Positions 5,473 to 9,711 of a stretch of 64,000 bases of DNA are shown here, in pieces; the stretch's first letter is position 1, and the number at the start of each line of letters is the position of its first letter. The DNA lies in NCBI GenBank assembly GCA_963663965.2, contig CAXXFK010000036.1, positions 1 through 64,000 on the forward strand, read 5' to 3'. This DNA comes from Sedimentisphaerales bacterium. Its GTDB lineage: Bacteria; Planctomycetota; Phycisphaerae; Sedimentisphaerales; SM23-30. The translations under genes were made by a program, and so were the position numbers. The notes beneath the pieces were generated by a model, which was not told the origin of the DNA, did no database searches, and saw nothing but the letters and a program-made list of their open reading frames with translations.

Positions 5473-6077
5473 GGTAGTACCTCCTGTTTAGAAATTTAAA
5501 ATTTAGAATTTAAAATGCAAAATTGTGGTATCCGCCAAGAGGCGGATGTTCGTTTTATTTTGGTTAAGTTTGGTTCGTTGTTGGGGTTAGGGTGATATTT
5601 TTTCATGTTGGGTTTGTTTCGTTTTATGTTGGTATTCGCTGCGCTCATGGTTAGTTTTATTTTTCGCCTCCGGTGCGAAATCCTGTCGGTACGCCTCTGC
5701 GAGGCGTGGGTTGAAAATTTTCTACGCTGGTTCGGGTATTCCCGCCAATGAATTGGCGGGCTATGCGTTTTTGATCTCTCCGAGATATTATTTGTATCCG
5801 TCCTCCTGAGGCGGACCTGCGGCCTTGAGGCGGATGAGTTTTTATTTTTTGTTAAGCTCAATTCTTGGTTGAGGTTAGGGCGATATTTTTTCATGTTGGG
5901 TTTGTTTCGTTTTATGTTGGTATTCGCTGCGCTCATGGCTGGTTTTATTTTTCGCCTCCGGTGCGAAATCCTGTCGGTACGCCTCTGCGAGGCGTGGGTT
6001 TAAAATTTTCAAATTCGGGTTTGGTACCCAGGGTGGCGCTCGTCCCGTTAGACGGGACTCGCTCTGCCCTCATAGGT

Positions 6078-6083
6078 TATACT
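6078..6083 (+). promoter_or_regulatory. -10 box (TATACT) of the IS110 circle-junction promoter
   Basis: Lies exactly 17 nt from TTGACA (7624-7629) once the ends are joined through one CT. Confidence 0.85.
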
Positions 6084-6089
6084 AATCCT

Positions 6090-6345
6090 TAGAGTATATG
6101 TTATTATTAATATCAGTATTCTTTCTTTTTGCTTCTTTTTCTTTCTGTGAAATCTGTTAAATTCTGTGAAACTTGTTATTTCCCCGAAACACGCCGGGGT
6201 GTGGCGAGGTCCGCGTTGCCCAGACCTTCGAGGGCCCAGCCCAGACTGACCCGCCATCACCCCACACCAACAACCATGAGGAACAATAGATTGTCTTCCT
6301 TCGAGGAACACTATGAGGCTGCCTGGGTTGTTCGGCTTGGCGTAA
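6090..6345 (+). ncRNA. Predicted IS110 bridge RNA (target-binding loop ~6196-6263, donor-binding loop ~6269-6332)
   Basis: Two stem-loops, each with an inner CCT-TCG-AGG hairpin; their internal loops match target and donor sequences. The 5' and 3' ends are approximate. Confidence 0.85.
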
Positions 6346-6372
6346 CACAACCACTAGAAAGGAGATGAGTCC

Positions 6373-7608
6373 ATGCTGTTCGCCGGAATCGATTGGTCCG
6401 ATCAAAACCTGGATTATTGTTTGTTGGAGGAACAGCAGGACCCACCATTGGCCCAGGGCCAAGCGCCCGTTAGCGCCGAGGGCCTGGCCGACCTGTTCGT
6501 GCATTGGGAACAATACGCACGGCCTGACCAAATCTTGCTGGCGGTGGAAACCTCCTGCGGCTGCTGGGTTCAAAGTCTGCTGGACCGCGGCTATCGCGTA
6601 TATGTGGTTCATCCCGCCGCCATTAAAAAGTTTCGCGAAGCCTTGTATCCCCAAGGCAACAAAACTGACAAGATCGACCGGTATGTGATCGCCCGATTTC
6701 TGAAAATCATGCATGCCGAATTGAAACCGTTGAAGCCCGACAGCGACGACATGATCGCCTTGCGGATCGCTACCCAAAACCGGTTGCGGCTGGTAGAAGA
6801 ACAAACCGCCAAAATCAATGAATTGAAATCTCTGCTGAAATGCCATTATCCGGCCTTCCTGACGCTGTTTGGCAGCATAAAAAGCCATATCGCCCTGGAT
6901 TTTCTGTGGGCGTTTCCCACCCAGAACCGAATGATGGCCCTGACACCCAAACGACTGGGAAAATGGTTGATCAAACACCATTATCCCAGCATGGGCCGTT
7001 TTGAAAAAATGGCTGCCATTCTGAAAGCGCCGGTTTTGCCCATTGCCCCCAATTTGCAAGAAGCCCACGCTTCGCTGATTGGCTATTTGGCTAAAAGTCT
7101 GCAAGCGCTCACGCGCGAAATCGATGACTATGATCGGAAAATTAACGACCTGCTCGACAATATGCCCGAAGCGGATTGGATCCGATCCCTGCCGGGTGCC
7201 GGCAATGTGTTGGCCCCGGCTTTGCTGGCCTGTTTGGGGCGAGACCCGGAACGCTTTGACAATCCCGCCCAAGCCCAGGCCTTCTTTGGCACCGCGCCGG
7301 TTACCAAACAAAGCGGCAAATCGTGTCAGGTCCATTTTCGCTTCGGCTGTTGGAAATTCGCCCGTCGCACTTTGCAGCTCTTTGCCGCCAGTTCCTGTCT
7401 CTTTTGTCAATGGGCCAAAGAATTCTACCATAAACAACGACAGAAAGGAAAGTCCTACCATGCCGCCCTGAGAAGTCTGGCTCACAAATGGGTAAAAATA
7501 TTGCTGGCCATGAAAAAAACCGGCCAACCCTATGATGATAACATGTTTGTTAACAGTCAACATAGATATCTCGAAAATCAATCGCAATTAATAGCGGTAA
7601 CTGGTTAA
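6373..7608 (+). CDS. IS110-family DEDD recombinase/transposase
   Basis: RuvC-like residues in 'GIDW', 'VET' and 'KTDKID'; Tnp20 region 'SLPGAG...GTAPVTKQSG' with the catalytic Ser; RBS AAGGAG at 6359-6364. Confidence 0.95.
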   Translation: MLFAGIDWSDQNLDYCLLEEQQDPPLAQGQAPVSAEGLADLFVHWEQYARPDQILLAVETSCGCWVQSLLDRGYRVYVVHPAAIKKFREALYPQGNKTDKIDRYVIARFLKIMHAELKPLKPDSDDMIALRIATQNRLRLVEEQTAKINELKSLLKCHYPAFLTLFGSIKSHIALDFLWAFPTQNRMMALTPKRLGKWLIKHHYPSMGRFEKMAAILKAPVLPIAPNLQEAHASLIGYLAKSLQALTREIDDYDRKINDLLDNMPEADWIRSLPGAGNVLAPALLACLGRDPERFDNPAQAQAFFGTAPVTKQSGKSCQVHFRFGCWKFARRTLQLFAASSCLFCQWAKEFYHKQRQKGKSYHAALRSLAHKWVKILLAMKKTGQPYDDNMFVNSQHRYLENQSQLIAVTG

Positions 7609-7623
7609 TTTTTAAATTAAGAT

Positions 7624-7629
7624 TTGACA
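7624..7629 (+). promoter_or_regulatory. -35 box (TTGACA) of the IS110 circle-junction promoter
   Basis: Consensus TTGACA 8 nt before the right-end CT core. Confidence 0.85.
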
Positions 7630-9711
7630 TAGATTGTCTGGGCTATTTTATGCCGGCCCGTTGGGCCGCTTTGGGTATCCGCCATTTGGCGGATGAAATT
7701 ATTATTTTCGTTAAGCTCATTTCGTTGGTAAGGTTAGGGTCATTATTTTCATCATTGGGTTTCCCGATAGATCGGGATTTTGCTGTGCTCAACGTTTTGT
7801 ATTGGTATTCGCTGCGCTCATGGTTGGTTTTATCTATCTCTTTTGCGAGATATCCTGTCGGTACGCCTCTGCGAGGCGTGGGTTAAAAGTTTCAAACTCG
7901 GGTTCGGGTATTCCCGCCAATGAATTGGCGGGCTATACGCTTTTGATCTCTTCGAGATATTATTTGTATTCGTCCTCCTGAGGCGGACCTGCGGCCTTGA
8001 GGCGGATGAGTTTTTATTTTTTGTTAAGCTCATTTCGTTGGTGAGGTTAGGGTTATTATTTTCATCATTGGGTTTCCCGATAGATCGGGATTTCGCTGTG
8101 CTCAACGTTTTGTGTTGGTATTCGCTGCGCTCATGTTAGTTTTATCTATCTCTTTTGCGAGATAACCTGGCGGTACGCCTCTGCGAGGCGTGGGTTAAAA
8201 TTTTAATTTCGTGTTTGTTACCCAGGGTGGCGCTCGTCCCGAAGGATCGGGACTCGCTCTGCCTGGGCTATTTTATGCCGGCCCGTTGGGCCGCTTTGGG
8301 TATCCGCCATTTGGCGGCTGTTCGTTTTATTTTTAGTTAAGCTCATTTTAACGCTGAGGTTAGAGTGACATTTTTTCATCATTGGGTTTCCCGATAGCTC
8401 GGGATTTTGCTGTGCTCAACGTTTTGTGTTGGTATTCGCTGCGCTCATGTTAGTTTTATCTATCTCTTTTGCGAGATATCCTGTCGGTACGCCTCTGCGA
8501 GGCGTGGGTTAAAAGTTTCAAACTCGGGTTCGGGTATTCCCGCCAATGAATTGGCGGGCTATGCGCTTTTGATCTCTTCGAGATATTATTTGTATCCGCC
8601 TTGAGGCGGATGAGTTTTTATTTTTTGTTAAGCTCGATATATTGTTAGGGTTATTATTTTCATCATTGGGTTTCCCGATAGCTCGGGATTTCGCTGTGCT
8701 CAACGTTTTGTGTTGGTATTCGCTGCGCTCATGTTAGTTTTATCTATCTCTTTTGCGAGATAACCTGGCGGTACGCCTCTGCGAGGCGGGGGTTTAAAAT
8801 TTTCTAACTCTGGTTCGGGTATTCCCGCCAATGAATTGGCGGGCTATGCGCTTTTGATCTCTCCGAGATATTATTTGTATCCGCCTTGAGGCGGATGAGT
8901 TTTTATTTTTAGTTAAGCTCGATATATTGTTAGGGTTATTATTTTCATCATTGGGTTTCCCGATAGCTCGGGATTTCGCTGCGCTCAACGTTTTGTATTG
9001 GTATTCGCTGCGCTCATGTTTGGTTTTATCTATCTCTTTTGCGAGATATCCTGTCGGTACGCCTCTGCGAGGCGTGGGTTAAAAGTTTCAAACTCGGGTT
9101 CGGGTATTCCCGCCAATGAATTGGCGGGCTATGCGCTTTTGATCTCTTCGAGATATCATTTGTATCCGCCTTGAGGCGGATGAGTTTTTATTTTTTGTTA
9201 AGCTCGATTCAAATTGGAACACACAGGGCGACGCATGCACCCACAAGCTGCGCTTGAAGGGCGCCACCCAGGGGATAAACAATAATTCGCTAAGCTCATT
9301 TCGTTGTTGAGGTTAGGGTGATAATTTTTTATATTGGCTTTCCCGATAGATAGGGATTTCGCTGCGCTCATGGTTGTTTTATTTTTCGCCTTCGGTGCGA
9401 AATCATGCAGGTACGCCTCTGCGAGGCGTGGAAAAAATTAAAAAAACGTTGACCGGCGGTCTCACGATTCCGGCCAGGAACGGTCGGCTCCTCCTGAGGC
9501 GGATCTTCGATCTTCGGGCCTCTCTTATGCCAATGATACTCTTGTGGTTACGGGCAGTCGGGCAGCCTCATATGATCCATCCATAAACAAAATCAACAGC
9601 ATGTGCCAATCACAGATTTGCCGCATCCTCTATGATAATGGTTTGAGTGATTTTTTGGTTTTACGAATAAAATCCGGGGGTTATTATAAAAAGTGGAATC
9701 CGGCTGGAATG

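Follow-up and report, generated by a model that had tools for sequence, protein, structure and literature searches.

The locus analysed here finds its closest described counterparts among the IS110-group insertion sequences (ISs), above all IS621 of Escherichia coli. In the excerpted text of the IS621 report, the 5' side of each bridge RNA loop pairs to the DNA's bottom strand and the 3' side to its top strand, with the core included (Durrant et al. 2024, PMC11208160), and the same excerpts report a promoter split across the circle junction of IS621 and describe ATA and TAT around the donor in the IS110 group (PMC11208160). Handshake guides, as set out in the excerpts of the companion structural paper, are the two bases which follow the right target guide (RTG) and the right donor guide (RDG), and, once the strands have been exchanged, base-pair at positions 6-7 with the other DNA (Hiraizumi et al. 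2024, PMC11208158). Part of a 2026 paper further states that integrated IS621 is weakly expressed and that its excision is less efficient than its insertion (PMC13626964). In the 64,000-nt stretch of a Sedimentisphaerales bacterium contig analysed here (the window), positions 6071-7639 of the forward strand very probably represent an active-looking IS110-group IS, the left end (LE) of which encodes a genuine bridge RNA that would guide recombination at a CT core. RNA expression, binding of the RNA by the protein, the chemistry of recombination and its programmability would be expected by analogy with IS621. The mechanism is already known, and the new part is a further member of the family.

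Counting one copy of the core, the element measures 1569 bp, with an LE of 302 nt (6071-6372) and a right end (RE) of 31 nt (7609-7639). The IS110-group arrangement, a long LE carrying the RNA (6187-6346) and a short RE, is present, terminal inverted repeats are absent, and comparison of the junctions with the empty sites shows a short CT core common to donor and target. A second full copy (G000:C3:48552-50142) lies in another copy of the genomic repeat and differs from the first at 8/1591 positions (99.5 % identity). Two of these differences change an amino acid, the reading frame is open in both copies, and the RNA and the non-coding ends are identical between them. The occupied junctions of both copies read CTCTGCC-CT-CATAGG on the left and GATTGT-CT-GGGCT on the right, in different repeat units, and exact empty sites (CTCTGCC-CT-GGGCT) occur at nine places elsewhere in the genome. 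On the basis of these shared junctions and empty sites, the element is delimited to 6071-7639 with a CT core. The left target CTCTGCC (6062-6068) and the left core copy (6069-6070) form the flank/element junction common to the two copies and recur in the nine empty sites (CTCTGCCCTGGGCT), and on the right, at 7629-7644, the left donor ATAGATTGT is followed by the right core CT (7638-7639) and the right target GGGCT (7640-7644), all on the forward strand. ATA and TAT stand on either side of the donor.

The insertion site lies in a repeat with approximately 25 copies genome-wide. In the window, a tandem array of 285-314-bp units extends from about 5530 to 9430 with the element inside it, and the insertion site is held by a module of approximately 100 nt with three hairpins, which is present in only some of the units. 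An unoccupied paralogous site, CTCTGC-CT-GGGCT, which is one C shorter than the used target, is found at 8257-8269 (forward strand). A search of the genome with the decoded guides returned no perfect site, two sites with one mismatch and, with two mismatches, the nine repeat sites. An Rfam scan of 5500-8500 (E <= 1) gave no match on the RNA, and two Acido-Lenti-1 matches on the target repeat, at 23.8 and 20.4 bits, below the cut-off of 37. Traces of the element occur at other repeat copies. A solo left-end remnant (G000:C12:79772-79838; locus L003) consists of LE nucleotides 1-56 (6071-6126) fused to right-flank GGGCT. Its joint (6123 to 7637), at which TCT is shared, was seen in runs X1 and X2, and the endpoint of the deletion falls inside the mirror repeat described below. 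A guided origin of this remnant is unsupported, with the pseudo-site matching the left donor guide (LDG) at 6/11 and the left target guide (LTG) at 1/7 positions. Furthermore, the target-repeat copies near G000:C13 103327 and G000:C10 309198 read CT-CATA-GGGCT (one CT-CAT-AGGCT), and the first four LE bases remain between the core and the right target. These variants look like scars of earlier insertions which were imprecisely removed.

The recombinase gene (6373-7608, forward strand) is intact and encodes a protein of 411 amino acids. It incorporates the PF01548 domain (E 8.7e-29; residues 4-160, full profile) and the C-terminal PF02371 domain (E 7.4e-14), and is matched by the structures of IS621 (8wt6; E 1.5e-12) and ISCro4 (9t56; E 1.5e-11), both remote but significant. 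Residue S314 aligns with the SG-motif serine of the IS621 chain 8wt6 (chain residue 243 by count), and would be the counterpart of S241 in the IS621 structure paper, if the chain is assumed to have two additional residues at its N-terminus. Acidic residues of IS621 are the counterparts of E59, D99 and D102 in this alignment, and no variation at D7, E59, D99, D102 and S314 is seen across about 24 aligned relatives. Both Pfam domains and the invariant residues thus bear out the intact 411-aa IS110 recombinase of the preliminary description. The suggestion made there that the ortholog may be new holds only weakly: the closest protein in a collection of 5.8 billion is 68 % identical, and the clade is populous (379 matches at E <= 1e-20, most relatives being 53-62 % identical), with one relative already bearing the NCBI name 'IS110 family RNA-guided transposase'. 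A phylum-wide sample of 401 genomes yielded relatives at <=34 % identity only, and closer relatives were therefore taken from protein and contig collections. Upstream of the gene, the Shine-Dalgarno region AGAAAGGAG (6356-6364, forward strand) coincides with a GAAAGGAGG block conserved in the homologs. An open frame of 476 codons runs antisense to the recombinase gene (6157-7587, minus strand); codon bias is its probable source.

The bridge RNA core comprises 160 nt (6187-6346, forward strand), with its limits drawn from a covariance model (129.1 bits; E 6e-21; full length 1-160), and forms a three-way junction in which a closing stem, P0, encloses two stem/internal-loop/hairpin modules. The minimum free energy (MFE) fold of 6185-6345 (-60.4 kcal/mol; z -2.25; 5/200 shuffles fold as well) yields both modules, in agreement with the two-module fold proposed from the letters. 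The stems are common to the MFE fold and the covariance model: P0 pairs ACGCC (6191-6195) with GGCGT (6339-6343), the stem of the target-binding loop (TBL) pairs 6196-6211 with 6248-6263, and the donor-binding loop (DBL) has a basal stem that pairs CC and AACAACC (6267-6275) with GGTTGTT-C-GG (6326-6335). The hairpins, GACCT-TCG-AGGGC with one A-G mismatch in the TBL (6223-6235) and TTCCT-TCG-AGGAA in the DBL (6296-6308), are found in the MFE fold and the alignment. The stem strings of the preliminary description are located where it had placed them (GGGGTGTGGCGAGGTC at 6196, GACCCGCCATCACCCC at 6248, AACAACC at 6269 and GGTTGTT at 6326), as is the DBL hairpin (TTCCTTCGAGGAA at 6296).

Conservation of this fold was examined in homologous loci from contig scans, eighty from metagenomes and sixteen from genomes, seventy-five of which extend 300 nt or more upstream of the gene. 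An alignment of the fifty-six distinct upstream regions makes conservation of the RNA obvious, and the fold is kept in about fifty homologs at 50-62 % protein identity. For an unfitted test, forty sequences were aligned with MAFFT and the structure, namely the initially proposed model with the closing stem added, was written by hand. Among these forty homologs 94.3 % of the cells are paired, and both sides have changed in 26/41 pairs. Column shuffles give 11.3 +/- 2.1 such pairs (0/500 reach 26) and slid partners 9-13. From this alignment the covariance model was built, the check on the non-coding ends of homologs that had been proposed. By helix, P0 (helix 1) is 98.3 % paired in forty sequences with double changes in 5/6 pairs in the model-fitted alignment, and both-side changes occur in 11/14 pairs of helices 2 and 3, the TBL stem, in the 40-sequence alignment. 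Helix 4, the TBL hairpin, is 96 % paired with double changes in 3/5 pairs, and double changes affect 7/9 pairs of helix 5, the DBL basal stem, and 3/5 pairs of helix 7, the DBL hairpin. When sixty-six distinct sequences were fitted to the model, an alignment which leans towards the structure, double changes were present in 38/41 pairs. The covariance model finds two matches only in the 7.2-Mb genome, both inside the IS copies, and seventy-four matches in eighty-eight loci, including four relatives at 30-34 % protein identity.

All four guide segments named in the preliminary description can be assigned with the LTG/RTG/LDG/RDG geometry of IS621, on the published rule and a family-wide test in homologs. 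In the TBL, the RTG AGCCCAG (6238-6244) is the reverse complement of CTGGGCT (7638-7644; 7/7) and is followed by the predicted handshake AC (6245-6246), the complement of GT at RE positions 7636-7637. In the DBL, the RDG CTATGAG (6311-6317) is the reverse complement of CT-CATAG (6069-6075; 7/7) and is followed by the predicted handshake GC (6318-6319). The LDG ATAGATTGTC (6286-6295) is identical to RE positions 7629-7638. The 11/11 match originally claimed for it is present as letters (ATAGATTGTCT at 6286 and 7629), and becomes 10/10 because the hairpin stem already starts at its last T (6296). The LTG CGTTGCCC (6214-6221), which comprises 7 nt for the left target and the core C, is delimited by per-position identity in the family. 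Compared with the flank CTCTGCCC, it is identical at 6/8 positions and has one U-G wobble. Both non-identities are distal (G against T, and U against C, the wobble), and A6222 mismatches the core T. Having the sense of the left flank, the LTG, in the first module, would pair with the left target's bottom strand. The expectation of these matches by chance was determined with 1000 dinucleotide shuffles of 6187-6346. The 11-nt right-end match was recovered in 1/1000 shuffles, the 7-nt reverse-complement matches to core plus left end and to core plus right flank in 24/1000 and 55/1000, respectively, and all three jointly in 0/1000. The TGCCC which the left strand shares with the left target (6217 and 6065) does occur as first noted. 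A 5-nt match of this kind recurs in 932/1000 shuffles, is not above chance and therefore carries no weight alone; the left-target match, as judged from the aligned sequences, gains meaning in the family register only.

For the family-wide comparison, loop strands were taken by alignment column, and in each locus the right end was located by its own LDG and the left end by its own RDG. Left out of the counts were L069 (upstream region not alignable), L058, L081, L083, L111 and L113 (aligned loop strands of a length other than 11 nt) and loci in which the contig ends before a flank; L104, the right end of which was not found, was left out of the right-target set and the per-position counts, with its left-target pair counted. 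The LTG matches the left flank at 6.04/7 non-core bases on average over forty-seven distinct pairs (shuffled 3.14 +/- 0.19; 0/2000), and the RTG matches the right flank at 4.76/5 over forty-two pairs (shuffled 1.67 +/- 0.17; 0/2000). The test of guide/target covariation in homologs proposed at the outset thus places both guides far above shuffled flanks. Because related loci have guides in common, the shuffle tests make the pairs look more independent, and the result more significant, than they are; the magnitude of the effect is beyond question despite this kinship. The window itself scores 5/7 non-core bases for the LTG and 5/5 for the RTG, and an LTG match of <=5/7 is also seen in 12/47 natural homolog pairs.

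Per-position counts give the reach of each guide. The LTG occupies strand positions 3-10 of 11 (seven bases and the core C; identity 0.75-0.98), and position 11 matches the core T at 0.08 and mismatches it in 92 % of the family, so that A6222 of the window is typical. In the RTG, the core C and T and positions +1 to +5 match at 0.88-1.0, and positions +6 and +7 at 0.07 and 0.14, respectively. The seven nucleotides of the RDG (CT and CATAG) match at 0.98-1.0, and the RTG and RDG include the core CT in all cases. The first eight nucleotides of the LDG match the RE at 0.89-1.0, and positions 9 and 10, which face the last donor base and the core C, at 0.11 and 0.34, the window being among the few that match throughout. 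Since the LDG stops short of the last donor base and the core in most relatives, inclusion of the core in all four pairings, as published, seems not to hold fully in this clade. The putative TBL handshake is AC with RE GT in forty-seven loci and AT with AT in three, and the first base of the putative DBL handshake pairs with the last left-target base in 51/52 loci (G-C 40, G-T 6, C-G 4, T-A 1, G-G 1). A candidate decoding rule for the clade emerges from these alignments: LTG, seven bases and C; RTG, CT and five; LDG, eight; RDG, CT and five. The LTG of the window is also the LTG of six relatives (L025, L053, L080, L084, L103 and L110), the flanks of which read GCGTTGCC-CT and which carry another RTG (for CT-ATCCT). 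The two target guides, left and right, therefore appear to have undergone exchange or independent evolution.

The two ends of the element carry the halves of a predicted promoter, the -10 hexamer TATACT in the LE (6078-6083) and the -35 hexamer TTGACA in the RE (7624-7629), both on the forward strand, and the RE-LE circle junction would read TTGACA - 17 nt - TATACT. Among the homologs, the LE hexamer is TATGCT in 28/53 and TATACT in 8/53, and TTGAC is found in the same register in 43/50 and shifted by one base in three more. A promoter scan for the integrated state, between the LE start and the RNA, gave no promoter-like site. An inverted repeat, TATACT...AGTATA (6078-6098), overlaps the -10 hexamer, with TATGCT...AGCATA in relatives. 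It is 79 % paired in forty-two sequences with weak covariation, and could serve as an operator or fold as a hairpin in read-through RNA. The sequencing runs listed for the locus include none of RNA. No RE-to-LE circle joint occurs in the contigs of four runs, which cannot show rare circles, and the only element-spanning joint in these contigs is that of the C12 remnant. As proposed here on the IS621 model, circle formation would join TTGACA to TATACT, so that the RNA and the recombinase gene would start to be transcribed. The LDG ATAGATTGTC and the RDG CTATGAG would read the RE-core-LE junction of the excised circle, and the recombinase-RNA complex would recombine this circle with CTCTGCC-CT-GGGCT at the CT core, with AC and GC, after the RTG and RDG, acting as the handshake guides towards the opposite DNA once the strands have been exchanged.

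A leader of approximately 100 nt, conserved more than the RNA itself, separates the -10 hexamer from the RNA. It contains a homopyrimidine mirror repeat, TCTTTCTTTTT-GCTT-CTTTTTCTTTC (6120-6145, forward strand), near-invariant in the alignment and in the clade of the form TCTTTCTTTTT-G-N-T-N-CTTTTTCTTTC. Mirror symmetry is kept in 55/55 distinct instances, with runs of (3,5,5,3) in fifty, (3,6,6,3) in four, which may be one lineage, and (5,5,5,5) in one. The outer C is missing on the left in six and on the right in six, the same loci by reading of the alignment. In this genome the motif is found in the two IS copies only. It is followed by four phased TGTKAAAY-like repeats (TGTGAAAT, TGTTAAAT, TGTGAAAC and TGTTATTT; 6146-6181, forward strand), of which most homologs have three. 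RNAalifold, run on the leader of forty-two clade members, yields zero pairs. Relatives at 30-34 % identity have a long hairpin in the place of the mirror repeat, and the 5' stem-loop which is lacking here marks a difference between clades; it does not define the family.

Homopyrimidine mirror symmetry is a requirement for an intramolecular triplex. It is conceivable, and put forward tentatively, that the mirror repeat and the TGTK repeats form a new control module which replaces the usual 5' stem-loop and acts via a triple helix, the latter being suggested by the strict mirror symmetry maintained through coordinated changes in both arms. Such a helix could take the form of H-DNA in the supercoiled circle, or else of a pyrimidine clamp that grips a purine strand, for example the Shine-Dalgarno region. 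If so, the helix could control whether RNA and recombinase are transcribed or translated after excision. A search inside the element for a purine partner of the mirror repeat found none within one mismatch. MFE folds pair the polypyrimidine tract with the Shine-Dalgarno region in 25/49 homologs, which is uninformative since any CU tract pairs with purine-rich sites and both partners are invariant. Within the papers searched, nothing linked IS110 to a mirror repeat, and only unrelated work came up for IS110 with a triplex.

Three other explanations of the locus can be weighed against the reading of an active-looking IS with a genuine bridge RNA. The RNA motif may be real and the element recently dead, with guides that fit the target poorly or recombinase variants that are inactive. 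The 5/7 score of the window LTG, the lack of a circle junction in the contigs of the runs holding the locus, and the presence in the genome of one truncated remnant and two short scars are in line with such a relic. However, the two copies differ at only 8/1591 positions, with open frames and identical RNA and ends, LTG matches of <=5/7 are shared by 12/47 natural homolog pairs, and contigs cannot show rare circles, so that recent death of the element appears improbable. Less probable again, and by a wide step, is that the structure is a 5'-UTR regulator of recombinase translation or stability and the matches to ends and flanks a by-product. The RNA does sit in the 5' UTR and its leader can pair with the Shine-Dalgarno region (25/49 MFE folds), but the loops vary with the flanking DNA of each homolog as the stems stay, and nothing would make a regulator follow the insertion sites; the strand geometry and the handshake positions are, moreover, as in the excerpted IS621 papers. 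That the matches are chance similarity in a GC-rich stretch, as the recurrence of the 5-nt LTG match in 932/1000 shuffles could suggest, has a negligible probability, given that the three other matches jointly occur in 0/1000, the covariance model scores 129 bits and the family-wide tests agree.

The mechanism being established, the main value of the active-looking element and its bridge RNA is as a clean natural example, in which one can directly read all the guides, the two handshake dinucleotides, the promoter at the junction and nine empty targets. As a possible additional programmable recombinase, from a lineage remote from E. coli, it is easily put to the test. The clade shows natural variation in the reach of the left guides into the core, and the mirror-repeat leader is the one point which could possibly teach something new on the control of these elements.

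Among the known systems, the likeness is greatest to IS621, as far as the excerpted descriptions of the latter extend. In common are a DEDD plus Ser recombinase, a CT core, an LE that is long and carries the RNA, an RE that is short, a pair of internal loops sharing the strand geometry, handshake dinucleotides after the RTG and RDG, a split junction promoter, ATA and TAT around the donor, and a repeat as target. The proteins differ, with the remote match to IS621 covering the C-terminal half only (E 1.5e-12) and 411 amino acids here against a chain of 328 residues. The guides differ in that LTG position 11 here mismatches the core T in 92 % of the family and that the LDG mostly ends two bases short of the core T. 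Furthermore, whereas the IS621 RNA, known here by its partial description, has a 5' stem-loop ahead of its two loops, in this clade P0 encloses both modules and the leader is without predicted pairs. The ISCro4 recombinase (PDB 9t56) belongs to the same family and is matched to the same extent as IS621, but is distant in sequence, the comparison being by protein alone. ISPpu9 and ISPpu10 of Pseudomonas putida, compared by excerpted description, are likewise IS110 elements which insert into one conserved intergenic repeat, in another host and another repeat. Finally, the IS1111 group shares the recombinase family and the RNA-guided logic, according to the excerpted account (PMC11208160), but carries its RNA in an RE that is long and has long subterminal inverted repeats, whereas the element described here has its RNA in the LE and an RE of 31 nt.
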